DNA of 32,000 nucleotides from Candidatus Saccharimonas sp. (GCA_015256915.3 CP076101.2:605740-637739); one strand, 5' to 3'. Positions 1 through 32,000 are shown, counted from the first letter of the stretch. Translations and numbers: made by a program. The notes: a model not told the origin generated them from the letters alone.

Positions 1-1135
1 CAATAGAAGTTGCACGGATAAATTTTCCAATTTTTGTAATTCTTGGGTCGTTATCAAGCTGATCCCCATTTTTACGATATTCTTTGGAAAGTTCAGGTTT
101 TCCCATTTTTTCGAAAGCCTGTTCGGGAGTTAAGCCATCAAATTCAGCCTTTTGTGAGCGAAATTTATAGATATAAAACTCCCGATTGAAGCGTGTTAGG
201 CGAACTTGTCTAAAGAAAATTGAATCTTTAGGATTGGTAATCTTCATAATGATCGCCACAATTAACATTATTGGTGAAACTAAAATTAAACCAAAGATTG
301 CTAAAATTAGGTCCATTATACGCTTCCATATTCGACCCATACCAAATAATTTTGTAATTTTTACATCAATGATTGGAGTTCCGCCAATAACTTCAATTGT
401 GTTAATCTGCGAAAGAAGCCTATCTTGTTGTGGTGCAAACATATACTCAAGGTGATTTTCGATCGCATAGTTATAAATATCTTCACTCCTAAGTGTATCC
501 GTTTGAATTAAGATATCAGGATTTGTTTTTAAAGCTGCATCTTTAAAACTCACAAAATGTCGAACAGGTGATTTCGTTGGTAAAAATTGACTTTTCGAAA
601 CCATTCCAATTACGTCATAACCAAAATCAATATTGTCATGAAAAAATTGAGCCAATTCTGTTGAACGAGAGTTTGAACCAATAATTAAAACTTTTTGGCG
701 ACCAAAACCACTTCGAATCAAAGCACGGCGAATAAAACGCACTATTTCGCGACCAAGAATCATCATTAAGAAATTAATTGGAACAAAGAAGACCGCAATT
801 ATTCGAACTGGAAAAACTTCATCACCGGTGAAAAATTCATAAGAAATCATAGCCATAATACTAATTATTGAAACAACTAAAGACCTACCATACTCTTTTG
901 GTCGATAAAAAAATACCGAACGGTCATAAAGGCCAAAGAAATAGTTAATGGCCAGCCAAAGTGGTAGAAGCGAAACTGCCAAAAATACAAAATTCCAGAT
1001 ATTTGGCGCAAAATAATACGCGCGGGAATCAAGATGAGTTCTCGCAAAATATGCTAGCATAAATGAGCTCACAACCGCTAAGGTATCAGACAATACTAAA
1101 TTGACTTTAAATATGGTTATTTTATCTTTTTTCAT
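1..1135 (-). CDS. polyprenyl-phosphate glycosyl-1-phosphate transferase (WbaP / 'bacterial sugar transferase' family), C-terminus cut by window edge
   Basis: Not in the ORF track because it runs off the window. My own minus-strand translation from ATG at 1135 gives MKKDKITIFKVNLVLSDTLAVV..., a TM-rich N-terminus. It continues ...SPIMLIVAIIMKITNPKDSIFFRQVRLTRFNREFYIYKFRSQ...NDPRITKIGKFIRATSI. That matches the F.Q.R.G..G..F...KFR(T/S)M ... DPR(I/V)T..G..(L/I)R block of PF02397 enzymes. Confidence 0.8.
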   Translation of the reverse strand, partial: MKKDKITIFKVNLVLSDTLAVVSSFMLAYFARTHLDSRAYYFAPNIWNFVFLAVSLLPLWLAINYFFGLYDRSVFFYRPKEYGRSLVVSIISIMAMISYEFFTGDEVFPVRIIAVFFVPINFLMMILGREIVRFIRRALIRSGFGRQKVLIIGSNSRSTELAQFFHDNIDFGYDVIGMVSKSQFLPTKSPVRHFVSFKDAALKTNPDILIQTDTLRSEDIYNYAIENHLEYMFAPQQDRLLSQINTIEVIGGTPIIDVKITKLFGMGRIWKRIMDLILAIFGLILVSPIMLIVAIIMKITNPKDSIFFRQVRLTRFNREFYIYKFRSQKAEFDGLTPEQAFEKMGKPELSKEYRKNGDQLDNDPRITKIGKFIRATSI

Positions 1136-2663
1136 TACGGCCATTATACATCTCCAATATAAAATTTAAACCAAACGCAGCGCCTACTATAAAAATAGGT
1201 AAATATATAAAAATATATCTTGCCCTACTTTCAAATAAAACCTGATATGCAACTACTAAAAGAGTGAAAAATAGTAAAACTACATGATAGTATTTAAACT
1301 TATTAGCTGATTTAAAGATAAAAATTGTAAATAAAGTAAGAATAGTTCCCCACATAATAGAAATAAAAACACTAAATAGCCGAAATTTATTACCATTCCA
1401 AGATAGAAAACGCCTAAATTTATGCACTATATTACCTTCAACTAAAAACTGTATGAAATTATTTCTACTAGAACCCTCTCCCCACACTCCAAATGTTCCG
1501 TCGTTAAAGAAATTCGAAATCTTTAAAATAGCAAACTTAAGCCATCCAAAAGGAAAATTATTCGTCAAACTATCAATAAATATATTTAAACTTACTTTCT
1601 CGCGCTCTCTTGCACCTTTAGCGGCAGTATCATCAGCGTATCTTGGGCAATATGATCCAGTATTACATTCATTATAAGGTGGAAGCCCTCGCATGGATCC
1701 CATACCTAAATAATGTAAAAATCCAGTTCTTTTTTCACGTATTTGACTACTGGAATATTTCGCAAAACCGTTAGAAGATGTAATTAAAGTATTTAATACA
1801 AAAAAGGAAGAAATAACTCCGATTATAAATAAACCAAAATATTTTGCGATTATTTTTATATTTCGACATCTATTTATAAAAAATAACGAAGATAGAAATA
1901 TTGATATCATTAATATTAAAGTAGTAGGCTTTATAGCATACCCTAAGTAAGCAAAAATTCCTAATAATATAGTTAAGATTTTTAGTATGTAGCCATTGCC
2001 TTTTTTTGCATATAATTCAATAAGTAAAAGAATAAATAATTGAGAAGCAACAAAGAACAGACCGACAGTATCCGTATAAAATACCGTAGAATATGGAGAA
2101 AAATTTATTATAGCGATAATAAATGTTGATATAATAGAAAATACAGATTTATTAAATTTAACATAGATAATAGCCATTATAAATAATGAAGAAACAAGAA
2201 TTAATATATTATTTATAAAAATTAGAAGTATATCTTTATCAATACCTACAAAATTAGCTATACGATATATTATTACTACAAAATAAGTTATAGTTATATT
2301 ATTATCATATCTCAATAAATAATTATATTCCCAAGCTTTATCATCTGGATCGGTGTTACCAGTTTTTATATAATTATTAGCTATGGTTTGTATAGCGCCA
2401 GCATCCCAAGAGTGTTGTATTGAGGCGGTAGAAAAACCAGTTATCATTTGAGAGATTGAAGCAATAAAAATAAAGAATATAAGCAGAGTTTTCTTACTAA
2501 ATTTTTTAGATAATAAAAAAACCGCCACAACAAACAAAATCAATACTATTGCTATAATCAATACTTTATAAGGATCATATACACTAAATATATTTTTCGA
2601 AAGACCAAATATGCCAAATATTAAGCTGATAAGAGAAAATAATCTTAATGCCTTAATTACCAT
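1122..2663 (-). CDS. polytopic membrane protein, putative GT-C-type extracytoplasmic glycosyltransferase or polymerase (family not assignable)
   Basis: 513-aa ORF with about 12 hydrophobic segments and one soluble loop (GMGSMRGLPPYNECNTGSYCPRYADDTAAKGARE). It lies in a glycan locus and overlaps the downstream transferase by 14 nt. Very AT-rich. No specific family motif recognised. Confidence 0.5.
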   Translation of the reverse strand: MVIKALRLFSLISLIFGIFGLSKNIFSVYDPYKVLIIAIVLILFVVAVFLLSKKFSKKTLLIFFIFIASISQMITGFSTASIQHSWDAGAIQTIANNYIKTGNTDPDDKAWEYNYLLRYDNNITITYFVVIIYRIANFVGIDKDILLIFINNILILVSSLFIMAIIYVKFNKSVFSIISTFIIAIINFSPYSTVFYTDTVGLFFVASQLFILLLIELYAKKGNGYILKILTILLGIFAYLGYAIKPTTLILMISIFLSSLFFINRCRNIKIIAKYFGLFIIGVISSFFVLNTLITSSNGFAKYSSSQIREKRTGFLHYLGMGSMRGLPPYNECNTGSYCPRYADDTAAKGAREREKVSLNIFIDSLTNNFPFGWLKFAILKISNFFNDGTFGVWGEGSSRNNFIQFLVEGNIVHKFRRFLSWNGNKFRLFSVFISIMWGTILTLFTIFIFKSANKFKYYHVVLLFFTLLVVAYQVLFESRARYIFIYLPIFIVGAAFGLNFILEMYNGRNEKR

Positions 2664-2669
2664 GTCATC

Positions 2670-2698
2670 ATTATAACACAGACTAATCCAATATTCAA
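2670..2698 (-). promoter_or_regulatory. sigma70-type promoter, leaderless, for the 1122..2663 gene
   Basis: Minus strand reads TTGAAT-17 nt-TATAAT preceded by TGT (extended -10). Only 6 nt separate the -10 from the ATG at 2663. Confidence 0.5.
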
Positions 2699-2713
2699 TT
2701 TCAACACGCTATA

Positions 2714-2722
2714 TGCTATAAT
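2714..2722 (+). promoter_or_regulatory. extended -10 promoter (TGCTATAAT), leaderless, for the 2730 gene
   Basis: TGCTATAAT ends 7 nt before the ATG at 2730. No Shine-Dalgarno sequence is present. Confidence 0.5.
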
Positions 2723-2729
2723 AATATAT

Positions 2730-4871
2730 ATGAAAAATATAGAAGAGACTAAATTATCTATAGTAGTAACAGCCCATAACGAAGGATTGTATCTATATAA
2801 AACAATATTATCTATAGAAAAATCTATAGAACTATTACCTGAAATAAGCTATGAAATAATTATAAGTCTAGATAATCCAGATGATGAAACTATAAGAGTT
2901 GCTAAATTTTTAAGTAAGAAAAAACAAATCAAAATATTCGAATCATCTTTTGGAAACCCTGCAGATAATAGAAATTTCGCAATTTCGAAAGCAAAAGGAT
3001 CAATATGCGCACTTATAGATGGCGATGATCTAGTATCTAAGAATTGGTTTAAAAATGGATTAGCAAAATTAAAAGAAAACGAAAATTCAATTATTAGGCC
3101 TCAAATACATGCGATGTTTGGCACACGCATGAATTCTCTATCAATATGGCAAATGCGAAATTCTACAGAAAAAAATATAGACTCTATACAGATGTCATAT
3201 TGGAATCCATGGACATTAACTTTAATAGCTAAAACAGAATTACTAAAAGATACGCCATTCAAACCCCAAAAAGGAGGTTTTGGATTCGAGGATTATCTAT
3301 TTAACTGTGATATTATTTCTAAAAATATACCCATACTTATTGCGCCCGAAACTACTTTCTTCTATCGCCAGCGGCCTAACGTCTCGGTATCAACCCAACA
3401 CAAAAATACAATTCTAGACTATTCAGACCTGTTCGATATAGAATATATTAAGTCAATCGAAATGCCAATACCTCAAAAAAAGACAAGCTCTAGGATTAAT
3501 ATTAAAAAATATTATCGAGCACTGTATGATATTGCAAAAAAATCAGAGAATATAAGAAGAGCTATGTCACCAGTGGCATCAAGAATCCTAAGTAAAAAAA
3601 ATATGAAAAAGCTCCCCACCTTCTTTATTGAAGACTGGAGAGAAATTAATGCCATAGAAAATCAACTCTACCCCACAAAAGAAAAAATATCACAAGTAGA
3701 ATTTCATCCACTAACTTTTAACCCATTAGACAATGAGTATGGAATCGTATATAAAAAGCTATGCGAACAGATATCTGGAAATAATATAGATTATTTGTTC
3801 TTAGCACCTGCTATGAGCGGAAGGGGCGGAACAGAAAAGTTAATTTCTAACTATATCAGAGCTTTAAAAGAGATTCACCCTAAATGGAATATAGGAATAT
3901 TATCAACACAGCCATTCAATAAGCCAACTATCGATTTTTTCAGTAATTTAGGAGTAGATCTAATAGATTTCGGAAGATTGACGAAAAAAATGGGAGATTA
4001 CGAAAAAAATATAATATGGTCGCGTCTCCTAATTCAAGCAAAAATTAAAAATCTACACTTAATAAATGATGAATACTGGTATAGATGGCTATCAGAACAT
4101 AAGTCAGTAATTAAAGAAAAAAATATTAAATTAAACATATCTTTGTTCATGCGTGAATTTACTAGCCAAAAAGATAGAATACTTTCATTCGCAGATCCTC
4201 AATTAGTAGAAGTATGGGATATAGTTAATTTAGTTTTCACAGATAACCAGGCGGTAATAGATCAGGCCTTAGAAAATAATTTATTCGAAAAGTCTAAGTT
4301 TAGAGTTCACTATCAACCACAAACTATAGAAGAAGATAACAATTCGAATAATATAGAATATGGTCAAAAAATTAAAATTCTATGGGCCAGCAGAATAGCA
4401 CTCCAAAAAAGACCAGATATCCTTAAAAAAATATCTAAAGAGCTCTCGAAAGATTTCGAAATAGATGCATACGGGGTCATTGAAAAGAAACAATATAGTA
4501 AAAATTACTTCAAGGACTCTCGAGTTAACTATATGGGAGGATTTAAAGGTATAAATTCTATAGAAACAAGTAACTACGATATATATTTATATACCTCTCA
4601 AACAGATGGAGTTCCAAATATATTGTTAGAAGTAGCATCCAAAGGAATACCAATAGTATCCAGCAACATTGGCGGAATCAGCGAGTTTATAACCGATAAA
4701 GAGAGTGGATTATTAGTAGATATGGAAGATATAGATGGATATGTAAAAGCTATAGAATTCCTGAAAAACAATCCGACATATGCAGAAAAATTTACAGCAA
4801 ATTTGCGAAAAAAGCTAAAAACGCAGCATTCGTGGGAAAGCTTTATAGATAAGATTTCTAAGGATATATAA
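2730..4871 (+). CDS. two-domain glycosyltransferase (N-terminal GT2 + C-terminal GT4/GT1-type)
   Basis: The N-terminus has LSIVVTAHNEG...DGDD (GT-A fold, DxD). The C-terminus has YTSQTDGVPNILLEVASKGIPIVSSNIGGISEFITDKESGLLV, typical of the GT4 E-x7-E region. Confidence 0.8.
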   Translation: MKNIEETKLSIVVTAHNEGLYLYKTILSIEKSIELLPEISYEIIISLDNPDDETIRVAKFLSKKKQIKIFESSFGNPADNRNFAISKAKGSICALIDGDDLVSKNWFKNGLAKLKENENSIIRPQIHAMFGTRMNSLSIWQMRNSTEKNIDSIQMSYWNPWTLTLIAKTELLKDTPFKPQKGGFGFEDYLFNCDIISKNIPILIAPETTFFYRQRPNVSVSTQHKNTILDYSDLFDIEYIKSIEMPIPQKKTSSRINIKKYYRALYDIAKKSENIRRAMSPVASRILSKKNMKKLPTFFIEDWREINAIENQLYPTKEKISQVEFHPLTFNPLDNEYGIVYKKLCEQISGNNIDYLFLAPAMSGRGGTEKLISNYIRALKEIHPKWNIGILSTQPFNKPTIDFFSNLGVDLIDFGRLTKKMGDYEKNIIWSRLLIQAKIKNLHLINDEYWYRWLSEHKSVIKEKNIKLNISLFMREFTSQKDRILSFADPQLVEVWDIVNLVFTDNQAVIDQALENNLFEKSKFRVHYQPQTIEEDNNSNNIEYGQKIKILWASRIALQKRPDILKKISKELSKDFEIDAYGVIEKKQYSKNYFKDSRVNYMGGFKGINSIETSNYDIYLYTSQTDGVPNILLEVASKGIPIVSSNIGGISEFITDKESGLLVDMEDIDGYVKAIEFLKNNPTYAEKFTANLRKKLKTQHSWESFIDKISKDI

Positions 4872-4879
4872 TTAAATAT

Positions 4880-5995
4880 ATGAGCAATAATTCGAAATAT
4901 TTAATAAGTTTTATAGTACCCGTATTTAATACGGGTACTAATATAGAAAACATTGTTAATTCAATACTTAAAGTAAGTAACACAATGGATAATATATTAG
5001 AAATTATAGTTGTTGATGATGGATCAGATGATCAAGAAACGCTAGATTCTCTAAAAAATATATCTAAGCTTAATGATGTATCAGTAATAAGACAAAAAAA
5101 TTCTGGCCCTAGCGCATCTAGAAATATTGGAATATCTAAGGCATCTGGAGAATGGATTGGATTTTGCGATTCAGACGACATTATAGATTCCGAACATCTT
5201 TTAAACACCGTAAAAACAATAAGAATGAATAATTATAAAAATTCAGATATGCTTGTTTTTGGGTGGAGTATAAGGCATAACCAAGATAATAAAAGTACTT
5301 ATAGGCACATTAATTTAGAAAAACAATCTATAACAGGTGAAAATGATATAGCACAAAAAACATTAAAATCTCTAAGTTTAGATGGACGAATGTATAATCT
5401 GTGGAATAGGCTTTATAGAAAAAATATAATCCGTGATAATAATATTAAATTAGATGAAAACCTTAGATTTGGAGAGGATCTAATATTCAACCTGAATTTC
5501 TTATTAAAATCAAGCAGGATTGACATACTAGATGTAGCGCCTTATTACACATATATTTCCAATAGTGAAACGAGTATAGTAAAAACTACAAAGCTCAACA
5601 CTGAATATAGAATAAAAAATGCAAGAGAGCTAGATAAATTTTCGAAAATAGCAAATCAGCAAGATAATCCCTATGTTCAACTTATTAAAGCTAGGTGGCT
5701 AATATCTTTCATGATGTCATCTATTCAATATTCAACCAAGCAAGAAGGATCTAAAAAATCTTTAAATAATATAAAGCATATTATTGACAATAGGATACTG
5801 GCACCAAAATTTATTAAAAAAACGCCAGAGATAGGGATAATAGAATATATATTTCTACTTATAGCAACCTTAATACTAAAAAATGCTCTATTAGCATTTA
5901 TTTTGGCTAATATATTGTTGTTTATTAAAAATATTAAATCTCAAAAAAATATAAAATTAGATGAAAAATATTACACACTGAAAAAAATAATCTAA
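4880..5995 (+). CDS. family 2 glycosyltransferase with C-terminal membrane anchor
   Basis: ISFIVPVFNTG...VVDDGSDD...GFCDSDD are GT2 motifs. The C-terminus is hydrophobic (IIEYIFLLIATLILKNALLAFILANILLF). Confidence 0.8.
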   Translation: MSNNSKYLISFIVPVFNTGTNIENIVNSILKVSNTMDNILEIIVVDDGSDDQETLDSLKNISKLNDVSVIRQKNSGPSASRNIGISKASGEWIGFCDSDDIIDSEHLLNTVKTIRMNNYKNSDMLVFGWSIRHNQDNKSTYRHINLEKQSITGENDIAQKTLKSLSLDGRMYNLWNRLYRKNIIRDNNIKLDENLRFGEDLIFNLNFLLKSSRIDILDVAPYYTYISNSETSIVKTTKLNTEYRIKNARELDKFSKIANQQDNPYVQLIKARWLISFMMSSIQYSTKQEGSKKSLNNIKHIIDNRILAPKFIKKTPEIGIIEYIFLLIATLILKNALLAFILANILLFIKNIKSQKNIKLDEKYYTLKKII

Positions 5996-6016
5996 AAAAT
6001 TAATATTTTTTATTTT

Positions 6017-6048
6017 AATACCACTGTTTAAACTCAAGTAGTGGTATT
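6017..6048. terminator. bidirectional hairpin between convergent genes
   Basis: AATACCACT (6017-6025) pairs with AGTGGTATT (6040-6048) around a 14-nt loop. Flanks are A/T runs. Confidence 0.5.
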
Positions 6049-6068
6049 ATTTAAAAAACTATCTATTC

Positions 6069-7232
6069 CTATTCAATAATATTCTTTTTTACTAAACCAT
6101 AGTCGTTATCGGTTTTAGTAGTTAAATATTTAAATCTAAAATCACCGCCATCAAAAGTATTAGCAATAGCCTTAGAATGATCTTTATTTTTTTCATATAG
6201 AACTGCAACAACTCTAAAGTCGGTAGAATTAAAATTATCTAAAGAAATCCTAATATTAAATACTGAATTATCTGTAGAAACCTTTACATGACCGCTGTCA
6301 TACACTCTACCGCCTCTACCTTCATCTTGAAGAGTATAAGCAATATATAACTCAGCATCACCGTTATACGAATATTCTATATCAGCCTCAAAATATTCAC
6401 CATGATGAATAATTGGTTTATTCCCAACAATTTTAATTGAGGAAGAATTATCATCAGTATTAGAATTATAAATATTGCGAGAATTAAGCGTGTCTAGGTT
6501 GGAAGCTATATATTTCTCAGCAACTTTATCAACATCACCAGATTCACTTATCATACCATCTGCAATAAAAATAGCATTATTACAATATTTTTTAACATCC
6601 GCCATTGAATGTGTAACCAAGATAACAGTTTTAGTTTTATCTTTCTTAATATTTTCGAAAAAATCATTACATTTACGTTGAAAGGCTTCATCACCAACTG
6701 CTAAAACTTCATCCAACACTAAAATATCACCTTGAGCTTTAATAGCGATCGAAAAAGCCAAACGAACTTGCATTCCGCTAGAATAATTCTTTAATTTCTG
6801 GTCCATAAATTCTTCAAGCTCAGCAAATTCAACAATTTCATTATACATTGCAGAAATTTCCTCTTTCGAAAAACCTAAAAGGGCACCATTTAAATAAATG
6901 TTTTCACGGCCAGTAAGTTCTGGATTAAACCCAACACCAAGCTCAATAAATGGAACCAAAGTTCCGTCAACTTTTACTGTACCACTCTCTGGCGTATAAA
7001 TTTGCGAAATAATTTTAAGTAATGTAGATTTTCCTGAACCATTTCGACCAACAATACCATAAAAATCACCTTTTTTAACCTTGAATGAAATATCCTTAAG
7101 AACTTTTTGTTCTTTATAGCCTTTAATTCCCTTCGTCCAGTTTACAAAAGCCTGTTTAATACCACTCGCCTGCTCTGTTGGTAAACGAAAACTTTTCGAA
7201 ACATTTTTTACTTCTAAAGCGTATTTTCCCAT
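6069..7232 (-). CDS. polysaccharide/teichoic-acid ABC exporter ATP-binding protein (Wzt/TagH type) with about 140-aa C-terminal extra domain
   Basis: Walker A is GRNGSGKST, the signature is YSSGMQVRLAF and Walker B is ILVLDEVLAVGD. A beta-rich tail (aa about 250-387) sits where Wzt glycan-cap-binding domains occur. Confidence 0.9.
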   Translation of the reverse strand: MGKYALEVKNVSKSFRLPTEQASGIKQAFVNWTKGIKGYKEQKVLKDISFKVKKGDFYGIVGRNGSGKSTLLKIISQIYTPESGTVKVDGTLVPFIELGVGFNPELTGRENIYLNGALLGFSKEEISAMYNEIVEFAELEEFMDQKLKNYSSGMQVRLAFSIAIKAQGDILVLDEVLAVGDEAFQRKCNDFFENIKKDKTKTVILVTHSMADVKKYCNNAIFIADGMISESGDVDKVAEKYIASNLDTLNSRNIYNSNTDDNSSSIKIVGNKPIIHHGEYFEADIEYSYNGDAELYIAYTLQDEGRGGRVYDSGHVKVSTDNSVFNIRISLDNFNSTDFRVVAVLYEKNKDHSKAIANTFDGGDFRFKYLTTKTDNDYGLVKKNIIE

Positions 7233-8056
7233 TACATAATCTCCGCAAATTTTTTCGAATTTTTATTAAAATACCATAGACCAAAAGCTACTAATAAAGT
7301 TGTGACCAAAATTGGAATTAACACAAACCAGTAATTTTCGAAAAGTGTCCAGAAAGTTGGTGTTTCATGAGCGATCAAATTGTGGCGAATATCTTGAATC
7401 GCAAGCGCAATTGGGTTAAGCATCATAATTTTCGCAATCGAAAATCCAAAAATTGAAACTTTTGTAACCATTGAAATTGGATACATAATTGGCATTGAAT
7501 AGACTAAAATCTGCATAAATACTTCCCAGATATGCGAAATATCACGGAATTTAACATAAAGAGTTGATAAAATTAACGCTAAACCAAAAGCTGTAGCAAA
7601 AAGAAGTATAATGTTAAATGGCAAAATTAAAACAGACCATTGGAATTTTACACCAGCAAAAATTGCAAAAGCTAAAACAACCAAAAGATTAATTGAAAGT
7701 GAAATTAAAGCACTCACCATTGAAGAAATAATCACGATATATTTTGGAAAATTAATTTTTCGCATCAAATCACCACGAGCAACAATTGAATTCATCCCCA
7801 AAGTAACTGCTTCGGTAAAAAATCCCCAAAGAGAGAGACCAAGGAGTAGAGTTATTGCATAGTTTGGAATTGAAGAATCAGTAATTCGCAAGAATTTTAC
7901 AAATATAAAATACATCACCACAAAAATCATAAGTGGCTTAAGAACTGACCATAAAATTCCCAAAGCTGAGCCTTGATACCTTAACTTAAAATCTGTTTTA
8001 ACGAGTTCTGCAAGCAGAACCCGATTCCTCTTTTCAAAAAATCCTATTTTAATCAT
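7232..8056 (-). CDS. ABC-2 type polysaccharide exporter permease (Wzm/TagG type)
   Basis: 274 aa with 6 TM segments. The N-terminal LVKTDFKLRYQGSALGILWSVLKPL block is typical of ABC-2 permeases. Its stop overlaps the ATPase start as TAATG at 7232. Confidence 0.85.
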   Translation of the reverse strand: MIKIGFFEKRNRVLLAELVKTDFKLRYQGSALGILWSVLKPLMIFVVMYFIFVKFLRITDSSIPNYAITLLLGLSLWGFFTEAVTLGMNSIVARGDLMRKINFPKYIVIISSMVSALISLSINLLVVLAFAIFAGVKFQWSVLILPFNIILLFATAFGLALILSTLYVKFRDISHIWEVFMQILVYSMPIMYPISMVTKVSIFGFSIAKIMMLNPIALAIQDIRHNLIAHETPTFWTLFENYWFVLIPILVTTLLVAFGLWYFNKNSKKFAEIM

Positions 8057-8066
8057 TATGCTTTTA

Positions 8067-8075
8067 ATTATATCA
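8067..8075 (-). promoter_or_regulatory. extended -10 promoter (TGATATAAT), near-leaderless, for the wzm/wzt-like operon
   Basis: Minus strand reads TGATATAAT, then 10 nt, then the ATG at 8056. No SD is present. Confidence 0.45.
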
Positions 8076-8150
8076 TATATCGCCTAACACTCCAACACTA
8101 AACTATTTTAACATCTGAAAATAGCTAGCTTTCTAGATTATTTTTAATAA

Positions 8151-8178
8151 GTTAAAACAGCATCTCTGCTGTTTTAAC
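8151..8178 (-). terminator. hairpin downstream of the LGFP gene
   Basis: GTTAAAACAGC pairs with GCTGTTTTAAC (11-bp perfect stem, 6-nt loop), 3 nt after the stop at 8181. Confidence 0.5.
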
Positions 8179-8180
8179 TG

Positions 8181-9908
8181 CTATTTATCTATTTTTAATA
8201 TATATTTATTACCAACACCCGTAATTAATCCTCTTTCGAAATTCTGAGTCCATTTACCATCATTCCATGCTTCATTCTTTAACGGTAAGCCGAGTTTATC
8301 TTTTTGCGTATCATTTAATGAATTATAGAATTTAAATACATCACCCTGAATTTCCCAATATCCTAAATTATCGTTTCCTATGATATCACCTTTCTCGTAG
8401 TGTTGTATCTTATAACCTTTTTCTTCAATAACATCACTAGTAGGAAATCCTAAAGCACCTTTTTCATTACCAATCTTATTCCAGCGTTCGCGTATTTTAC
8501 CATAACTTTCATGATATCCAGATTTTGGACTACCTATAATAAAACCATTCTGATATTTCTGGAACCATCCACCTTGAATAGTTGAAAATTCTTGTGTTAT
8601 AGGTAATCCCATCTTACCATGTTCATACCCTAATTGAGCATACTTATCTCTAATTAAACCAATACTTTCCCAATATCCAGTACTATCACTTCCAATTATG
8701 AAACCATTCTGATATTTTTGCGCACGACCATTATTGATAGTGTTAAAATATCCAGATAGTGGTAATCCCATCTTACCATGTTCATACCCTAGCTCAGAAT
8801 ATCTTTGTCTAATTTTACCATAGTTTTCCCAATATCCAGTACTATCACTTCCAACTATGAAACCATTTTTAAACCTTTGGAATATTGATTTATCGGTCTT
8901 GAAAAATTCAGAATCTACGTCACCAAGATATCCTTTTTCACCACCTAGCTCAATGTATCTTTCATATATTCCACTGTGTATTCTTTTACTTTCAAGAGTA
9001 GAGCCAAATAGCCGGTTAAAGAACATAAAGAAATTACGATTTCCATAAGCTCCACAATGTGAAGTTCCCGGATAATTTGCTAGTGCTGAATCATTCGGAA
9101 CATACGGTGTATAAATATATAAACTTAAAGTTGCAACATTCTCAATATTAACACGTTTTGTACCGCAAGCTGGATTTGGTGAATATTGAATATTATTCCA
9201 TCCAAGCTTTAGCGAATAGCCACCATCTTTATGATGGTCTTTATAATATTTGAGCTGCCAAGCTGCCAAAGTCATTTGTTTATAAAAACCAGCTTTCGAA
9301 TCCGCACAAGCAGCAGAAAATCCAGGTCCAGAATCTGGGCAAGCATAGCCCATTGCATATTTATATTGAGTTTTTACTGGCCAATTATCATCTAGTAAAT
9401 TGAGAGATTCTTTCTTCAGTAAAACCAACAAAACTTGCGGGTTAATTCCATATTTCTGAGCCGCATCATAAATAATCTGTGCCGCCGAAATTCCACCTTC
9501 GAAAGATCCGCCACCTTTTTCGAAAGAAGTTTCGCCAGTATTTGGGTTTTCGTGATAATTATTTATACATACATATGGAGGTTTATGCCAATAATTTGAA
9601 TTTTGTGCAGCAGCAAATTGAGCAGCGGTTCTACCATCATTTTTCCCAGAAGGTCCAGTACCCCAGGTATCACAACTACCAATTTGCTTATTTAAAAAGC
9701 TTTGGATTTGCTGCACGTTCATTGCATCTTTATTATAAAAAATACTGTCGTCAATAATTCGTCCAGGATTGAAATCGGTTGCTTTAACAGCGTTAGAAAG
9801 ATTTCTAAGTACAGCTAAAGAACTAAAAATAATAACCGCCACAACTGGCGCACCAATTAAAATTGATTTTTTAAATTTTCTACTTCTCGATTGTAAAACT
9901 TTGAGCAT
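8181..9908 (-). CDS. secreted or membrane-anchored cell-wall protein: Cys-rich N-terminal domain + five LGFP repeats
   Basis: There is an N-terminal TM/signal segment (ILIGAPVVAVIIFSSLAVL). A conserved domain contains AAQIIYDAAQKYGINPQVLLVLLKKES. The C-terminus has 53-aa repeats with the LG(Y/F/L)P...NG.I(I/V)G...G motif characteristic of LGFP repeats (PF08310). Confidence 0.75.
   Translation of the reverse strand: MLKVLQSRSRKFKKSILIGAPVVAVIIFSSLAVLRNLSNAVKATDFNPGRIIDDSIFYNKDAMNVQQIQSFLNKQIGSCDTWGTGPSGKNDGRTAAQFAAAQNSNYWHKPPYVCINNYHENPNTGETSFEKGGGSFEGGISAAQIIYDAAQKYGINPQVLLVLLKKESLNLLDDNWPVKTQYKYAMGYACPDSGPGFSAACADSKAGFYKQMTLAAWQLKYYKDHHKDGGYSLKLGWNNIQYSPNPACGTKRVNIENVATLSLYIYTPYVPNDSALANYPGTSHCGAYGNRNFFMFFNRLFGSTLESKRIHSGIYERYIELGGEKGYLGDVDSEFFKTDKSIFQRFKNGFIVGSDSTGYWENYGKIRQRYSELGYEHGKMGLPLSGYFNTINNGRAQKYQNGFIIGSDSTGYWESIGLIRDKYAQLGYEHGKMGLPITQEFSTIQGGWFQKYQNGFIIGSPKSGYHESYGKIRERWNKIGNEKGALGFPTSDVIEEKGYKIQHYEKGDIIGNDNLGYWEIQGDVFKFYNSLNDTQKDKLGLPLKNEAWNDGKWTQNFERGLITGVGNKYILKIDK
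8184..8969 (-). repeat. five tandem intragenic LGFP repeats, period 159 bp
   Basis: Repeats 2 and 3 share identical 31-mers at 8602-8632 and 8761-8791. They also share 29 identical nt at 8667-8695 and 8826-8854. Confidence 0.75.
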
Positions 9909-10482
9909 CCGACCTTCCTTCTTGCTTTTGTTTTGAATTTTTATAAGTTGTTATTGCTGTCCATTTTCCAGTTTTAAATTCACTATCACTAATTTTTTTC
10001 GAAACTGCCTTACAATATTTATTATTTGGGCTCTCTAAAATTTCAGTTGAAAGTTCAATTTTAGTTCCATCAGAATGCGTTAGAGTATATGAACATTTAC
10101 CATTCCCATCATCATAAAGGAGCCCTGAAATCTGCCCGGCCACACGAACTGTACCATCTTCAACTTGCACGGTTGTATAAGTTGGAAAATTTGTATAACC
10201 CGAGGATTCAACAGTTCCTTCAGCACGATCAGTATTATTATTTTTAGTTTTCGAATTAATGATTTCCTTTGCAGCTTCTTGCTTTTTAGTTTCTTCAGGT
10301 TTTTTCGAATCTTCTTTTTTCTCTTCAACTTTTGAAGTATTTTCTTCTTTTTTCTCATTATTTTTTTGAGAATTTGAATTTACCCACCAGAAAATTCCAC
10401 CAGCACCAGCGACCAGCAAAATTACAAATGCAGCAAAAATAATAGTTTTAGTTTTTTTAGTATTTTGTGTGTTTATTTTCAT
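9880..10482 (-). CDS. membrane-anchored hypothetical protein (K/E-rich linker + beta-rich C-terminal domain with two Cys)
   Basis: 200-aa ORF with an N-terminal TM (IIFAAFVILLVAGAGGIFWWV). A GGAG SD lies 7 nt upstream of the ATG. It overlaps the LGFP gene by 29 nt. No family recognised. Confidence 0.6.
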   Translation of the reverse strand: MKINTQNTKKTKTIIFAAFVILLVAGAGGIFWWVNSNSQKNNEKKEENTSKVEEKKEDSKKPEETKKQEAAKEIINSKTKNNNTDRAEGTVESSGYTNFPTYTTVQVEDGTVRVAGQISGLLYDDGNGKCSYTLTHSDGTKIELSTEILESPNNKYCKAVSKKISDSEFKTGKWTAITTYKNSKQKQEGRSDAQSFTIEK

Positions 10483-10567: not shown

Positions 10568-10576
10568 ATAATTACT

Positions 10577-23707: not shown

Positions 23708-24769
23708 TTATTCTTCAGTTTTTTCTTCGTTTGGAGTTTCTTCAATAAATTCTTCACCACGAATTTTTGCTCGAACCTTAGCATCAATTTCTGTCATTAC
23801 ATCTGGATTTTCAAGCAAATATCGTTTAGCGTTTTCACGACCTTGACCAATATTCTGATCATTATATTTATAGAATGCGCCAGATTTTCCTAAAATTTCA
23901 TGTTCAACCGCTAAATCTATAATATCTCCAGTTTTCGAAATTCCCTCGTTATACATAATGTCGAATTCGGCAACTCGGAACGGTGCTGCAATCTTGTTTT
24001 TCACAATTTTAACCTTTGTACGGTTTCCAATTACATCATCACCACTTTTAATTTGAGCTGTTCGGCGAATATCAGCACGAACTGAAGCATAGAATTTAAG
24101 CGCGTTACCACCAGTTGTGGTTTCAGGATTTCCAAACATCACACCAATTTTCATTCGAATTTGGTTGATGAAAATTACCGTAGCTTTTGATTTATTGATA
24201 ATTCCAGTAAGTTTTCGAAGCGCTTGCGACATTAAACGAGCTTGAAGTCCCATGTGAGCGTCACCCATATCTCCATCAATTTCAGCCTGCGGAACAAGAG
24301 CTGCAACTGAGTCGACTACAATTAAATCAACTGCGTTCGAACGCACCAAAGTTTCAGTAATTTCAAGCGCTTGCTCACCATTATCAGGCTGTGCAACAAG
24401 CAAGTTTTCAGTATCAACACCAAGTTTGCGTGCATAAGCTGGATCAAGTGCATGCTCAGCATCAATAAACGCCGCTGTTCCACCTTGTTTTTGAATTTCA
24501 GCAATTGCATGAAGTGTTAAAGTAGTTTTTCCTGAACTTTCTGGTCCATAAATTTCAATAATTCGCCCCTTAGGGTATCCACCGCCAAGCGCAATATCTA
24601 GACTTAAACATCCTGAAGGTAGAAGCTCAACATCAACTTTATGGTTTTCACCAAGCTTCATAATTGAACCATCACCAAATTGTTTCGAAATTTGTGCAAT
24701 CGCTAAATCTAGCGCTTGTTTTTTGCCATCTTCAGCCATTCCTACATCTGTTTTTTTTGCTTTAGCCAT
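23708..24769 (-). CDS. recA: recombinase RecA
   Basis: [20 protein letters not shown] (Walker A), [21 protein letters not shown] and the [10 protein letters not shown] loop are present. Confidence 0.97.
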
Positions 24770-25178: not shown

Positions 25179-25568
25179 ATGAAGAAAAAATCTGGTTTTA
25201 CAGTTATTGAAATTTGTGTTGTAATTATATTTTTAATCGTCGTTGGCGTAATTTTTACAATACAAAGATTTGAACTTCTCGCAGTTCAACGCGATCAAAT
25301 TCGAAAACTTTCGATTAATGAAATTTATTATAATTTGGAAGAAGTTTATTACAAGAAAAACGGCTATTACCCTGAAAAAATCAACGAAGATGTTGTTAAA
25401 GGCATTGAACCAAATCTCCTAACCGACCCTTCTGGAATTATAATTAATGAAGAAAAAAGTGAATATCACTACGAACCAACCAACTGTGAAAACGGTAAAT
25501 GTAAAAAATTCACACTTCGAGCAAAATTAGAAAAAGAAGGTGATTTTATTAAAAAATCTCGAAATTAA
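25179..25568 (+). CDS. type IV pilin / pseudopilin (prepilin-type N-terminal cleavage/methylation signal)
   Basis: MKKKSG|FTVIEICVVIIFLIVVGV is a class III signal: G at -1, F at +1, E at +5, then a hydrophobic helix. The C-terminal CENGKC forms a Cys pair. Confidence 0.75.
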   Translation: MKKKSGFTVIEICVVIIFLIVVGVIFTIQRFELLAVQRDQIRKLSINEIYYNLEEVYYKKNGYYPEKINEDVVKGIEPNLLTDPSGIIINEEKSEYHYEPTNCENGKCKKFTLRAKLEKEGDFIKKSRN

Positions 25569-25611: not shown

Positions 25612-26361
25612 TTATTTTACACTCATTTTTACACCTTCTTCAAAAAGTTTATCAGAGAGCATTTGATTTTCACGAGCAGCTTCAACAATGTCGCTTAAAA
25701 ATTCTGCTTTTTTGTCTGGATTTGGTGAAAATGGAAAAGTATAAGTTGATTCATCGCCAACAGTGCTCAATTTAACAGTTCCATAATCAAACAAATGCTG
25801 CAAAATCCCCTCTCGAGAATAAGAAATATCTTCGATCGATTCAAGGTTAATTACCTGCTTTTTTTGGCTCATAATCGTATTCGAAATCCATTGAATTGCG
25901 CGTTCGTTCGTAATCACGAATCGATTTGCTCGATATACAACATAATTAACATAAGTTAATATAATTAAAAGTAGCGTAATTGAGCCAAAAATCAAAGAAA
26001 TTTGTGGCTTAAAGTTTGCAGGAATTGGCAGCGGATTAGGCATAAAACAAATAATAATCCACGCGCTTATTAGCAAAACACCAATAAATGCGCTAAAAAT
26101 AATATTTAAAAGATAGCCGAGTGAGTGACGGCGCATCGAAAGAACCACATATTCATCTTCATCAACCGTGATATCAGGATAAGTTTTCACGGATTGTTCG
26201 TGTCTTGCTTTAATTACGCGCGGATCTCCAGCAGGAACTTCTACTTGCATAACTGGCTGAACTTGAATTGGAGCCCCAAAGTTGTTTTCGAAAGTTAAAT
26301 TCTGCCCATTTTGTGTGATTTTTTCTTCAAATTTTTGTGCCAAGCTTCGCTTATCATTCAT
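25612..26361 (-). CDS. membrane protein with bacterial PH (bPH_2 / YdbS-YdbT-like) domain
   Basis: Two TM helices are followed by [53 protein letters not shown], the bPH_2 pattern. It overlaps ruvB by 8 nt. Confidence 0.6.
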
Positions 26362-27367
26362 CTTTAAATTCCTTTCCTAAATGTTCAAATGCTTTTTGGG
26401 TGATAATTCTTCCACGAGGAGTTCGTTGCAAAAAACCAATCTGCATCAGATATGGTTCATAAAAATCTTCAATTGTTGCAGTTTCATCGCCAGTTAATGC
26501 TGCCATTGTATTTAAGCCAACTGGCCGCGTGCCATAATTTTCAATTACTGAATTTAATAGATTTCTATCTGCTGCGTCGAGCCCCAGTTCATCAATCTCA
26601 AGCATTTTTAAAGCATTTTGGGCAGTTTTCGAATCAATAATTCCATCGCCATTAACATCAGCATAATCACGAACCCGCTTTAAAATTCGGTTTGCAATTC
26701 GTGGAGTTAACCTTGCTCTCGTTGATAGAATTTTTGAAGCTTCATCTTGAATTTTACTCCCCAAAATTTTACTTGAACGTAAAATAATTTTCGAAATCTC
26801 TTCCGGTGTGTAAAATTCCAATCTATAAATATGGCCAAAACGGTCACGGAGCGGAGCCGCTAGGCTTCCAGTTCGAGTTGTGGCACCAATAACCGTAAAA
26901 TGTGGCAAATCTAACCGAACCGAGCGTGCAGCTGGACCTTTACCAATTACAATATCAAGTTTAAAATCTTCCATTGCGGAATAGAGAATTTCTTCAACAG
27001 CGCGTGGCATTCGGTGAATCTCATCAATAAAAAGAATATCACCATCTTGTAAATTTGTTACAATCGAAGCTAAATCGCCAGCTTTTTCAATTGCTGGGCC
27101 AGACGTAATTCGAATATTCGCACCCATTTCACGCGCAATCACATTTGCCATTGTAGTTTTTCCCAACCCCGGTGGACCATAAAGAAGCACATGATCAATA
27201 TTTTCACCACGCTTTTTTGAAGCTTCAATTGCAAGTTTTAAGTTTTTCTTCAATCGCTCTTGGCCAACATATTCATCAAAATTTGTTGGGCGTAAAGAAA
27301 TTTCCACCTGCTGCTCTTGTGGTTCGTCATCATGTAAGTTTGCATCAATAATTCTTTCAATAGCCAT
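26354..27367 (-). CDS. ruvB: Holliday junction branch migration ATPase RuvB
   Basis: [42 protein letters not shown] and [17 protein letters not shown] are present. Confidence 0.95.
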
Positions 27368-27374
27368 TAACTAT

Positions 27375-27383
27375 ATTATACCA
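27375..27383 (-). promoter_or_regulatory. extended -10 promoter (TGGTATAAT), leaderless, for ruvB
   Basis: Minus strand reads TGGTATAAT, then 7 nt, then the ATG at 27367. Confidence 0.5.
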
Positions 27384-27387
27384 CGAC

Positions 27388-27416
27388 TTGACAAAAATAG
27401 AAAAATTTGTTATAGT
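27388..27416 (+). promoter_or_regulatory. near-consensus sigma70 promoter for the 27472 orphan gene
   Basis: TTGACA-17 nt-TATAGT (preceded by TGT). The leader is about 49 nt, with hairpin TATTCC-5 nt-GGAATA (27426-27442) and an AGGAGG SD (27458-27463) 8 nt before the ATG. Confidence 0.6.
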
Positions 27417-27471
27417 TCTAACGTATATTCCTTTATGGAATAAGAAATTTTTATACTAGGAGGGCTCTAAT

Positions 27472-27912
27472 ATGAGCAACTTAAAAAATTTAGTCAAAAG
27501 CGATATCGCAATTTTCGAAAATGCTGTAAAATTAGCTCACGGCAATGAAGAAATCGCACGAAAAAACCTTAGCGAAAAAATAATAGGTTTCGCTAAATTA
27601 ATTCGAAATAGATTTAACCCCTCTAAGCTAGAAGAAAGCGAACTGGTCAACCTACAAAAAGTTGATACAACTGGAGGGTTTGGAATTGAGGAAGAAATAA
27701 TTTTCCTGACCAACACAAATAATTGCTTTGGCGTAAATAGCCGCGGCGAAATCTATAGCTTCTCGGTTAAATCTGGGAATAAGTATGGTTTTCGTCGACT
27801 AGATTTAAATGAAATTTTAAATCTTCCGAAAAAAGAAATCGGCTATCTACATCATGAATTTTGCCAAGCTGCGAAAGAAGTTTTTAAAAATCGCTATGTT
27901 AGATCCATATAG
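27472..27912 (+). CDS. hypothetical protein (146 aa, soluble), no recognisable family
   Basis: The ORF has a strong promoter, a perfect SD and its own terminator. It is inserted on the opposite strand between ruvA and ruvB. Confidence 0.6.
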   Translation: MSNLKNLVKSDIAIFENAVKLAHGNEEIARKNLSEKIIGFAKLIRNRFNPSKLEESELVNLQKVDTTGGFGIEEEIIFLTNTNNCFGVNSRGEIYSFSVKSGNKYGFRRLDLNEILNLPKKEIGYLHHEFCQAAKEVFKNRYVRSI

Positions 27913-27924
27913 CATAAAATAAAA

Positions 27925-27953
27925 GTCGCACAAAATGTGCGGCTTCTTTTTTT
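27925..27953. terminator. bidirectional hairpin terminator (orphan gene / ruvA)
   Basis: GTCGCACA-aaa-TGTGCGGC (8 bp including one G.U) followed by TTCTTTTTTT. An A/T run on the other side serves ruvA. Confidence 0.55.
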
Positions 27954-27959
27954 AAAAAT

Positions 27960-28535
27960 TTAAATTCCAGCTTTCAATGCCAAAGTAATGCGTTCTTCCG
28001 TTGGTAAATCACGCGGGATTTGCTCTAATGCCTTCGTTGCATCATTCAAGTTAAATCCAAGCGCAATAAGCGCCTCTAAAGCCTCATCTGAAGCTAAGCT
28101 AATATTAGTACCAACACTATTATGCTTCGAAATCGCCATTCCAACCTTATCTTTTAAATCTAAAATCACACGCTCGGCTGATTTCTTACCAACTCCAGAT
28201 GCTTTTTGGATAAATTTTGCATCTTCGCAAGCAATTGAATTTCGAACATCTTCAGTCTCGCCTAAGCTCATAATTGCAACTCCAGCCCTTGGGCCAATTC
28301 CTTGAACAGTAATTAAAAGTTCAAAAAGCTTTTTAGCTGCCAAACTTGAAAAACCAAAAAGTTCTTGACTTCTATCAGTAATATTATGATATGTGTAAAA
28401 TTTAATATCATCACCTAGAACTGCTCGTTCGAACTCATTTATAGGAACGATAACTTCATATCCAACACCAGCAACATCCACAATCACGCTACCAGCAAAT
28501 TTTTCAACAATTTTTCCAGAAATATGTGCAATCAT
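27960..28535 (-). CDS. ruvA: Holliday junction DNA helicase subunit RuvA
   Basis: MIAHISGKIVEK...GVGYEV..., then the HhH region LITVQGIGPRAGVAIMS...KASGVGKKSAERVILDLKDK, and a C-terminal domain III. Confidence 0.9.
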   Translation of the reverse strand: MIAHISGKIVEKFAGSVIVDVAGVGYEVIVPINEFERAVLGDDIKFYTYHNITDRSQELFGFSSLAAKKLFELLITVQGIGPRAGVAIMSLGETEDVRNSIACEDAKFIQKASGVGKKSAERVILDLKDKVGMAISKHNSVGTNISLASDEALEALIALGFNLNDATKALEQIPRDLPTEERITLALKAGI

Positions 28536-28565
28536 TAAATTATTTTACCATAAACTCTTTAAGTT

Positions 28566-29051
28566 TTAAATACGCGTCATATAAAAATGCGTAATTGCAG
28601 CAGCAAGTGCATCAGCTGCATCATCTGGCTTCGGAATTTCAGCCAAATTCAAATTCGAACGCACCATTTCCTGCATTTGCTTTTTATTTGCTCCGCCATA
28701 ACCTGTTAAAGTCTGTTTAATCTGATTTGGAGTGTATTCTGCAATTGGAATTTTTGATTGTTGAGCTACTAAAATAGCTACACCACGAGCCTGAGCAACC
28801 GAAATAGCTGTTGTTACATTTTTCGAAAAAAATAGTTTTTCAATTGAAACCTCATCTGGAGTAGTTTCTGCAATAATCTCTTTCAAGCCATTATAAATTT
28901 CTTCAAGCCGAATTTCAATTGGTGTATGAGCCGGAGTTGAAATAACACCACCAGTTACCATTTTTAAGGGCTTACCAATCTGGCAATCTACAACGCCAAA
29001 CCCTAAAATTCCAGTTCCAGGGTCAATTCCTAGAATTCGCCGCTTTTTCAT
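28566..29051 (-). CDS. ruvC: crossover junction endodeoxyribonuclease RuvC
   Basis: ILGIDPGTGILGFGV (catalytic D), EVSIEKLFF (E), and the C-terminal PDDAADALAAAITH (D/D) are present. Confidence 0.9.
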   Translation of the reverse strand: MKKRRILGIDPGTGILGFGVVDCQIGKPLKMVTGGVISTPAHTPIEIRLEEIYNGLKEIIAETTPDEVSIEKLFFSKNVTTAISVAQARGVAILVAQQSKIPIAEYTPNQIKQTLTGYGGANKKQMQEMVRSNLNLAEIPKPDDAADALAAAITHFYMTRI

Positions 29052-31585: not shown

Positions 31586-31593
31586 GATTATTT

Positions 31594-31731
31594 TTAGACT
31601 GTAAGTCGTTTTCGGCCTTTTAGTCGGCGTCGTTTTAGAACTTTAATTCCAGCCTTTGAAGACATCTTATTTCGAAAACCATGAGTTTTCGCACGATGTC
31701 GTTTATGTGGTTGATGTGTTCTTTTTGGCAT
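31594..31731 (-). CDS. rpmH: 50S ribosomal protein L34
   Basis: Too short for the ORF track. My translation is [45 protein letters not shown] (45 aa), matching the L34 pattern M.KRT.QP..R.R...HGFR.RM.......VL..RR.KGRK.L(T/S)V. Confidence 0.9.
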
Positions 31732-31740
31732 ATCTATCCT

Positions 31741-31746
31741 ATTTTA
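31741..31746 (-). promoter_or_regulatory. -10 box (TAAAAT), near-leaderless, for rpmH
   Basis: Minus strand reads TAAAAT, then 9 nt, then the ATG at 31731. Confidence 0.4.
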
Positions 31747-31848
31747 CAATTTAATATTAAAAAAATCAAGTTGATTACTTTTCATAAGCTTTTTAATCTG
31801 TTATTTAAACTTGAAATTTTACTAAATTCATTTTGTAGTATACCATAG

Positions 31849-31975
31849 TTTTCCACAAAAAACAAGGACTTTTCAACAGATATTACAGTAGTATTTAAGA
31901 AATGTGGAAAAATTCTTCTACTTTTCAAAAATTATAACATATTTTTTATTTCATTAAATTTTAGGTTGTGGAAAA
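31849..31975. other. cluster of DnaA boxes, probable edge of oriC
   Basis: TTTTCCACA occurs at 31849-31857 (forward) and as TGTGGAAAA at 31903-31911 and 31967-31975 (reverse). Each differs by one base from TTATCCACA. A weaker TTTTCAACA lies at 31870-31878. The position upstream of rpmH is the canonical rpmH|oriC|dnaA location. Confidence 0.55.
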
Positions 31976-32000
31976 CTCAAAAATGTTATAGAATAGAATT

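Follow-up and report, generated by a model that had tools for sequence, protein, structure and literature searches.

TTCGAA, a hyperabundant palindrome in the genome of an oral Saccharibacterium

The window, its genes and the palindrome

We found the palindromic hexamer TTCGAA 98 times in a stretch of 32,000 bases from an oral Saccharibacterium (TM7), in the following called the window, which corresponds to a mean spacing of 325 bp, or 3.06 copies per kb, at a G+C content of 32.3%. The same RecA protein occurs in human oral metagenomes, and identical RecA proteins carry the names 'Candidatus Nanogingivalis sp.' and 'Candidatus Saccharimonas sp.' at NCBI. Nearly half of the sites (48 of 98) are the octamer TTTCGAAA. 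The initial annotation of this DNA had counted 97 sites; the exact count adds one, while its 48 octamers and all site positions that it listed proved accurate. Our statistics are based on this single 32-kb window and, in about 20 other strains, on some 18 kb of DNA flanking it; the loci are metagenome assemblies. The features to which we refer below are listed here, with occupancy as the fraction of synonymously compatible positions that actually carry the motif.

1..32000, no strand: TTCGAA palindromes, 98 copies by exact count
1..11942, no strand: cell-envelope glycosylation locus with glycosyltransferases, an ABC exporter, an LGFP-repeat protein and GtrA
18087..19943, minus strand: ftsH, 6 sites, including the phase-0 Phe-Glu site at 18735
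21064..22338, plus strand: type II/IV secretion ATPase (Pfam T2SSE, E = 3e-53), 8 sites, 17 compatible positions
23708..24769, minus strand: recA, 5 sites (starts 23934, 24154, 24214, 24336 and 24684), occupancy 0.71
25179..25568, plus strand: type IV prepilin-like protein of 129 amino acids with a prepilin-type leader, adjoining recA, 1 site
26354..29051, minus strand: ruvB, ruvA and ruvC (Pfam annotations of identical genes), occupancy 0.33, 0.75 and 0.67, respectively
31594..31731, minus strand: rpmH (ribosomal protein L34; Pfam Ribosomal_L34 for the identical protein), motif at 31671 in phase 1, within GFRN

The number of copies far exceeds what the composition of this DNA predicts. Base composition gives 10.7 expected copies, in agreement with the 10-11 estimated in the initial annotation, and thus an excess of about 9x; first- and second-order Markov models give 21 and 36. 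A maximal-order Markov model, with 85 expected copies, is uninformative because the 5-mers already hold the signal, and lower-order models and codon shuffles were used. The runner-up among the CG-containing hexamers of the window reaches 19 copies, and WWSSWW words of the same composition as TTCGAA do not exceed 21 copies per strand; the control pair ATCGAA and TTCGAT occurs 21 times, close to the 20 or so reported before. The initial annotation had also named an equal excess of all (T)nCG(A)n words as the observation that would speak against a specific palindrome. No such excess exists: TCGA occurs 175 times in total and thus 77 times not within TTCGAA, against about 83 expected, and none of TCGA, TTCGA and TCGAA is enriched beyond the full hexamer, so that neither (T)nCG(A)n words in general nor the CpG context can account for the signal.

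The immediate flanks of the hexamer show a preference, with T at position -1 in 64% and A at position +6 in 67% of the sites and a weak bias at -2, while the same flank bases stand around TTTGAA, TTCAAA and TTTAAA in 26-60% of cases. More than about 2 nucleotides away on either side, the surroundings are at background composition. Because nothing is conserved beyond about two bases on each side, the sites are not parts of a longer repeat, and an origin as a piece of a repeat or mobile element was rejected. We found no extended asymmetric consensus of 9-12 bp, as expected of an uptake sequence, around this core, which is a 6-bp palindrome. A host would be expected to avoid the word recognized by BstBI/AsuII, or to be neutral to it, if TTCGAA were an ordinary restriction target; here the word is enriched 9-fold. 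Distances between sites fit an exponential distribution (coefficient of variation 0.82, Kolmogorov-Smirnov p = 0.35), as under random placement, and no significant regularity was detected in the spacing of the 98 sites. Denser TTCGAA cluster patterns have almost no matches in this genome.

Every gene of the window except one open reading frame (ORF) of 63 amino acids holds at least one TTCGAA. Occupancy per gene ranges from 0.24 to 0.75, with a tendency to larger values in conserved housekeeping genes (recA, ruvA, ruvC, ftsH, murJ) and to smaller ones in surface and glycosylation genes of low G+C content; in the glycosylation locus it amounts to 31/84 = 0.37, compared with 67/152 = 0.44 in the remaining window. 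The density contrast pointed out in the initial annotation, with 2 sites in 1136-2663 and 13 in 20114-22338, is real, and much of such gene-to-gene variation reflects the number of compatible positions. The most motif-dense long gene encodes the T2SSE-family ATPase, which we read as PilB/PilT-like. In recA, a codon alignment with 16 other Saccharibacteria places four of the five sites at conserved residues (RSN, LRK, IRM, ISK), where they arise via synonymous choice of TCG or CGA; the fifth lies at a variable residue, where ITK, INK or IEK has changed to ISK.

Besides the ATPase, the window encodes RecA, RecX, RuvABC and a type IV prepilin. The N-terminus of the latter, a protein of 129 amino acids without a Pfam match, reads MKKKSGFTVIEICVVIIFLIVVG, in which a hydrophobic helix comes after a prepilin-type leader. 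The initial annotation was right in naming a type IV pilin and lamin-tail-domain proteins, which are, however, only circumstantial evidence. An ORF of 146 amino acids on the plus strand sits between ruvB and ruvA.

All 98 sites lie in coding sequences (CDSs). The intergenic DNA of the window comprises 1739 nt at 22% G+C and contains no TTCGAA, for which composition predicts 0.46 copies and the nine-fold enrichment of the genes about 4; among words of the form TTYRAA, 0 of 17 intergenic and 98 of 241 coding ones are TTCGAA. The absence is only mildly surprising. Just outside the window, other strains carry TTCGAA in the dnaA-dnaN spacer, where the site is conserved across strains, upstream of ruvC, and in a 21-nt gap between genes. 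The earlier statement that the motif is found only inside genes thus holds for the 1739 nt examined there and fails at three sites beyond them, outside called genes: it reflects the small intergenic sample of the window rather than a trait of the motif. One further strain, L091, contains 4 TTCGAA in a non-called stretch of 232 nt (4164-4395) after a LytR gene of 463 amino acids. The LytR ORF of L093 (563 amino acids) spans the matching stretch, and in L091, as in strains with the same gene calls, this is probably remnant coding sequence.

Codon choice, relatives and allele frequencies

The excess persists when the encoded proteins are held constant. We shuffled synonymous codons within each gene 1000 times, keeping every protein and the codon usage of each gene, and obtained a mean of 33.1 copies (standard deviation 4.7, maximum 47), compared with 97 TTCGAA in the CDSs of that run (z ≈ 13.6). 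The ratio of 2.9 contrasts with the value near 1 that, according to the initial annotation, would have argued against any pressure on the word, and this null is itself inflated, since TCG, CGA and TTC owe part of their usage to the motif. Each codon phase is enriched, with 21 observed versus 8.4 shuffled copies in phase 0, 25 versus 11.1 in phase 1 and 51 versus 13.6 in phase 2. Among all hexamers, TTCGAA and the words that overlap it are on top (z ~13), and the next unrelated word follows at z 7.3. The next unrelated words in excess over the shuffled CDSs were CCGTGA/TCACGG (14 vs 2.8) and CCGCCA/TGGCGG (19 vs 5.8).

Seen from the protein side, the motif takes up a similar share of the available positions in every phase. 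It is present in 21 of 44 Phe-Glu dipeptides (phase 0), in 26 of 66 triplets of Phe, Leu, Ile or Val, then Arg, then a codon that can start with A (phase 1), and in 51 of 126 triplets of a codon that can end in T, then Ser, then Lys or Asn (phase 2), i.e., at about 40-48% of the synonymously compatible positions, nearly even across phases. The codons involved are preferred precisely where they complete the palindrome: TCG makes up 52/126 of Ser codons in a motif-compatible context and 63/549 elsewhere, CGA 33/66 and 100/382, and TTC 22/44 before Glu and 108/534 elsewhere. Where TCG is followed by AA, a T precedes it in 51 of 52 cases, and the whole hexamer is therefore the unit. Both the presence in all three phases and the use of otherwise rare codons to complete the word, as described in the initial annotation, withstand this analysis.

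Close relatives share the trait. Ten other strains of the window's species (95.5-98% identity) carry 68-76 TTCGAA per 21 kb, an eleventh strain (94% identity) carries 66 per 20 kb, and nine loci of a sister species (81% nucleotide identity, 34.4% G+C) carry 50-59 per 20 kb. The eleventh strain and the sister species were found by exact-match look-up of ribosomal protein L34; a RecA homology search for closer relatives gave only matches of at least 98% identity. Among 22 loci of other Saccharibacteria, with RecA proteins 69-84% identical and a G+C content of 34-54%, we counted 0-7 TTCGAA, at or below expectation, and detected no other palindrome at comparable excess. Because these 22 loci lack the excess, we conclude that it is specific to this genus-level clade and that it arose in the Nanogingivalis lineage. 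TTCGAA is palindromic, hyperabundant, present in all frames and conserved, and thus has the operational features of a highly iterated palindrome. In our literature searches, neither an excess of TTCGAA nor a hyperabundant palindrome in Saccharibacteria turned up as previously reported.

A scan of viral contigs with the pattern TTTCGAAAN{0,30}TTTCGAAA returned 120 mostly chance matches and no stretch longer than 2 kb near about 3 sites per kb. Two viral contigs show a moderate TTCGAA excess, L228 (IMGVR_UViG, 12.1 kb) with 17 copies versus 3.7 and L190 (8.8 kb) with 14 versus 3.0; L190 holds four clustered octamer pairs within about 430 bp.

Whether the motif is maintained was analysed in the window's species (species A; alignment of window positions 13708-32000 with L001-L010) and in the sister species (species B; L101-L105 and L107-L110). 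At conserved residues, 64% of third-codon positions are identical between the two species. Motif hexamers at such positions are identical in 28 of 39 cases, compared with 41% for all other hexamers, and TTC, TCG and CGA codons are conserved in 34 of 52 cases inside and 50 of 116 cases outside the motif (p = 0.012), with each codon pointing in the same direction.

Allele frequencies, which involve tens of sites and strains and sites that are not independent, show the same preference. At transition-polymorphic third positions, the G/C allele that completes the motif has a mean frequency of 0.60 (n = 47), compared with 0.475 at other CpGs and 0.472 at non-CpG positions (p = 0.005). Alleles with G or C that break the T/A flank have a mean frequency of 0.22 (n = 11) versus 0.47 (p = 0.003). 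Both species agree in direction, and when alleles are polarised with the respective other species as outgroup, the derived-allele frequency is 0.61 for motif gains (n = 12) and 0.21 for motif losses (n = 10). Since allele frequencies and between-species conservation favour the whole hexamer, these data point to a fixation bias for the complete word, flanks included, and not to a mutation bias. The occupancy is even, and a higher equilibrium occupancy would by itself produce about as much extra conservation as is observed, from which we infer a generic force on all compatible sites rather than many individually functional sites.

The mutational spectrum at the motif was also inspected. In polymorphic motif sites, the alternatives are almost all TTTGAA or TTCAAA, i.e., C/T changes at the central CG. 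Third positions with C or G inside the motif are transition-polymorphic in 33% of cases, compared with 43% at other CpGs and 27% at non-CpG C/G; a hypermutable or strongly protected motif C is thus not seen. The words TTTGAA and TTCAAA together occur 72 times in CDSs, against 78.8 under the codon shuffle (z = -1.05), and 79 times in the window as a whole, where Markov models predict 98-107; a deficit of the kind left by Vsr is not clear from the CDS count. In species A, 150 of 349 CpG third positions (43%), 236 of 862 non-CpG C/G positions (27%) and 9.5% of A/T positions are transition-polymorphic; the raised CpG polymorphism may be due to CpG-context hypermutability or to a separate cytosine methylation.

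Linkage disequilibrium in species A falls quickly with distance, from an r2 of 0.89 below 50 bp to 0.27 at 0.5-1 kb, and reaches its baseline by about 1-2 kb, a decay scale similar to the 325-bp mean motif spacing. The four-gamete condition is violated by 66-75% of site pairs more than 500 bp apart. This suggests frequent short-tract recombination. In species B, linkage disequilibrium decays more slowly than in species A.

Several observations on gene content stand apart from the motif. The standard genetic code is in use: an alternative code (UGA = Gly), suspected from a split lepA gene, was rejected, as the ORFs are unchanged under code 25. The lepA region (14634-16411, minus strand) consists of two ORFs, one of 183 amino acids with the GTPase domain and one of 408 amino acids with the C-terminal domains, which overlap by one base (ATGA) in different frames. 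Because all ten other strains (L001-L010) show the same split, we do not read it as a sequencing error; it looks like a conserved split or a programmed frameshift. The DUF4352 gene (13904-14527, minus strand), 207 amino acids long in other strains, is frameshifted in the window with a stop after 139 amino acids and is probably a strain-specific pseudogene or truncation. Between rpmH and ruvC, the gene content of the lamin-tail surface-protein locus (29048-31523) varies among strains. Both genes are absent in L007 (5160-5754), L008 has one gene of 498 amino acids (3721-5720), the first gene is split in two in L002, and the versions of the sister species are divergent (45-63% amino-acid identity). 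Strains L003 and L006 carry, between tilS and ftsH (about 14650-15400), an insertion of about 0.7 kb not present in the window, with ORFs of 59 and 163 amino acids; its 2 TTCGAA sites correspond to a native composition. In L101-L110, the region upstream of recF-dnaN-dnaA (1-5732) encodes a VirB4/TraG-like P-loop ATPase, an M23 peptidase of 1044 amino acids, a phage-lysozyme/GDSL protein and a PEGA-domain protein. This origin-adjacent cluster looks type IV-secretion-like and cell-wall-attacking.

Processes that could have raised TTCGAA

The initial annotation had proposed a DNA-level drive or selection for TTCGAA. Our results support this view by the excess over codon shuffles, the independence of reading frame and the specificity for the hexamer, by its presence in two species at 81% identity and its absence in other Saccharibacteria, and by the signs of a fixation bias. 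That the favoured word is a perfect palindrome, whatever the reading frame, implies that a symmetric protein recognizes it in double-stranded DNA, for example a methyltransferase, a restriction-type enzyme or a dimeric binding protein. Saccharibacteria are naturally competent through ComEC (PMC10633639), and two other bacterial groups connect short palindromes to transformation: in Campylobacter jejuni, DNA uptake is confined to DNA methylated at the palindromic hexamer RAATTY (PMC10046745), and in a cyanobacterium, natural transformation becomes more than 100-fold more efficient when the highly iterated palindrome HIP1 is methylated (bioRxiv 10.1101/2024.09.10.611283).

We tentatively propose, with a probability of roughly 0.35, that TTCGAA is a methylation-marked self-DNA tag that accumulates via biased uptake or recombination in natural transformation. 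TTCGAA, preferably as TTTCGAAA, would be a double-stranded-DNA recognition word, and a process acting on DNA, rather than on protein or codon usage, would have driven it up across the Nanogingivalis chromosome. A lineage-specific DNA methyltransferase would most likely mark the palindrome as self-DNA, and the natural-transformation pathway, in the uptake and/or the recombination of incoming DNA, would prefer DNA that is tagged. In an often-recombining population, tagged fragments would replace resident alleles more often than untagged ones, so that motif-creating alleles would rise and motif-destroying ones fall wherever the protein sequence permits. The net process would be a molecular drive as for uptake sequences, on a methylated palindrome resembling HIP1 or the hexamer read by CtsM of C. 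jejuni. We infer the methylation of TTCGAA, its reading by the transformation machinery, and drive rather than functional selection.

A number of points weigh against this proposal. The roughly 50 kb that were read of a genome of about 0.7 Mb contain no methyltransferase, restriction enzyme or DNA receptor; classical uptake sequences are, unlike TTCGAA, 9-12 bp long and non-palindromic; and competence was shown in another genus of Saccharibacteria than this one (PMC10633639). Chimeric metagenome assemblies could partly explain the fast decay of linkage disequilibrium, and recombination breakpoints are not significantly associated with motif sites, with a large raw difference in species A (circular-shift P = 0.10) and P = 0.24-0.32 in species B. 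The allele-frequency shifts rest on 11-47 sites, and their codon-matched versions, although they have the same direction, are weaker (p = 0.023 for Phe, p = 0.20 for Ser). Other DNA-level selection or biased repair would, moreover, yield the same patterns of allele frequency and conservation.

Two such processes deserve closer consideration. Repair linked to a methyltransferase might ratchet near-miss words into TTCGAA as a by-product and leave sites without function, either by very-short-patch repair of the Dcm-Vsr type or as in Elhai's model of methyl-directed mismatch repair for highly iterated palindromes (HIPs). The genus-limited spread of TTCGAA matches the sporadic alternate 5-6-mer palindromes of cyanobacteria, which occur together with a cognate methyltransferase (PMC4390886), and the polymorphic alternatives to the motif are almost all TTTGAA or TTCAAA. 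The even occupancy over phases and most genes and the level of conservation would both fit a generic drive. TTTGAA and TTCAAA are, however, not clearly depleted (72 vs 78.8), the motif C is neither hypermutable nor strongly protected (33% vs 43% and 27%), and patch repair specific for T:G at the CG does not predict that flank-breaking alleles are rare; the DNA that was read contains neither a methyltransferase gene nor a Vsr gene. We regard biased repair as a doubtful explanation, but as the main rival of the self-DNA tag. TTCGAA could instead be the site of an abundant dimeric DNA-binding protein with a role in the nucleoid, segregation or replication, each site being weakly selected, as Xu et al. 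concluded similarly for HIP1 (PMC5861425). A palindrome suits a dimeric protein, conservation between species exceeds that of matched controls, motif-breaking alleles are rare at the centre and at the flanks, and the dnaA-dnaN spacer site is kept across strains. Yet the spacing is indistinguishable from random placement, occupancy is just 40-48% and alike everywhere, so that a generic bias would suffice to account for the conservation, and no candidate protein was recognized in the roughly 50 kb. To our knowledge, three sites per kb are also far denser than known structural motifs, and we consider a binding site unlikely.

A purely mutational origin would treat the motif as a context effect or a relic of base composition, for instance through protection of its C from C-to-T decay or through a polymerase error. 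The lineage has indeed 32-34% G+C, compared with 39-54% in its relatives (one locus at 34%), and changes at motif sites are mostly C/T transitions. But relatives carry 0-7 sites per 21 kb, and ancestral preservation cannot turn these into about 70; motif C/G positions are as polymorphic as other C/G positions, the signal lies in allele frequencies and hence in fixation, and TCGA, TTCGA and TCGAA are not enriched outside the hexamer. Such an origin is very unlikely. We hold it still more improbable that UUCGAA acts in mRNA or that codon pairs are selected in translation. The exclusive location of the window's sites in CDSs (98/98, with none among the 17 intergenic TTYRAA) would be expected of such a signal, but the intergenic DNA is only 1.7 kb at 22% G+C and its zero is weak evidence; sites outside called genes exist beyond the window, including the dnaA-dnaN spacer; three phases are enriched with similar occupancy, and neither an RNA nor a codon signal requires a perfect palindrome. 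A small chance, greater than that of either of the last two, is left for something that we have not considered.

If TTCGAA is a methylated self-DNA tag spread by molecular drive, it may be the first sequence-specific tag for self-recognition in transformation known from the candidate phyla radiation, which we consider possible but on balance rather doubtful. In that case, a methyltransferase specific for TTCGAA is expected in Nanogingivalis and not in its relatives, modified TTCGAA should be visible in long-read oral metagenomes, and methylated TTCGAA in donor DNA may raise the transformation efficiency of these hard-to-manipulate epibionts. Cyanobacterial HIP1, Campylobacter RAATTY and the classical uptake sequences would then belong together as transformation tags of a single class. 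Research on hyperabundant palindromes has concentrated almost entirely on cyanobacteria, where, after thirty years, there is no agreement on the role of HIP1, and an independent case would provide a second system for separating drive from function. As the TTCGAA excess is limited to one genus-level clade, it appears to be recent. The word is in addition useful in binning, as a strong compositional marker of this lineage, and it shifts codon-usage statistics through TCG, CGA and TTC.

Comparison with known palindromes and uptake sequences

Dcm and the very-short-patch repair by Vsr in Escherichia coli lead to an excess of CCWGG and a deficit of CTWGG, a modest effect of repair bias at a methylated C. 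The polymorphic alternatives to TTCGAA are the corresponding T:G products, which is a likeness to this system; unlike there, the product words are not clearly depleted, and flank positions also appear to be favoured.

With the DNA uptake sequences of Neisseria (DUS) and the uptake signal sequences of Pasteurellaceae (USS), TTCGAA shares a density of at least about 1 copy per kb on both strands, the location in genes in all frames, and the occurrence in a sister species alike. It is also somewhat denser in conserved housekeeping and recombination genes, and it belongs to a competent group which, on these data, recombines highly. DUS and USS, at 9-12 bp, lack its palindromic symmetry, and DUS often form paired terminators between genes, whereas the intergenic DNA of the window is free of TTCGAA.

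The RA(m6A)TTY word of C. jejuni resembles TTCGAA as a frequent palindromic hexamer in an AT-rich genome (PMC10046745). There, the orphan methyltransferase CtsM has been demonstrated to make the hexamer a self-DNA mark for transformation, while for TTCGAA such a mark is proposed. The C. jejuni case shows that a short methylated palindrome can act as an uptake signal. We know of no report of a statistical RAATTY excess comparable to that of TTCGAA.

The closest analogue is HIP1 (GCGATCGC) with the alternate HIPs of cyanobacteria (Elhai 2015, PMC4390886; Xu, Lawrence and Durand 2018, PMC5861425), each of which co-occurs with a cognate methyltransferase and which have been explained by biased repair (PMC4390886) or by selection (PMC5861425). 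TTCGAA, like HIP1, is a short perfect palindrome of about 1-3 copies per kb that lies in genes in all reading frames, largely through synonymous codon choice, and that is conserved between related genomes above control words. Both are lineage-specific, the alternate HIPs likewise being sporadic 5-6-mers, and both are sequences of a restriction-modification type that are enriched rather than avoided. The differences concern the host, a member of another phylum (Saccharibacteria/Patescibacteria) with a genome of about 0.7 Mb; the word, a hexamer whose single central CG is flanked by A and T in a genome of 32% G+C, compared with a GC-rich octamer; and the size of the excess, 9x over composition and 2.9x over the codon null, compared with 15-300x for HIP1. 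TTCGAA is thus neither the GC-rich cyanobacterial octamer nor one of its GGCGCC/GCCGGC alternates, but an analogue of HIP1 in a different bacterial lineage.

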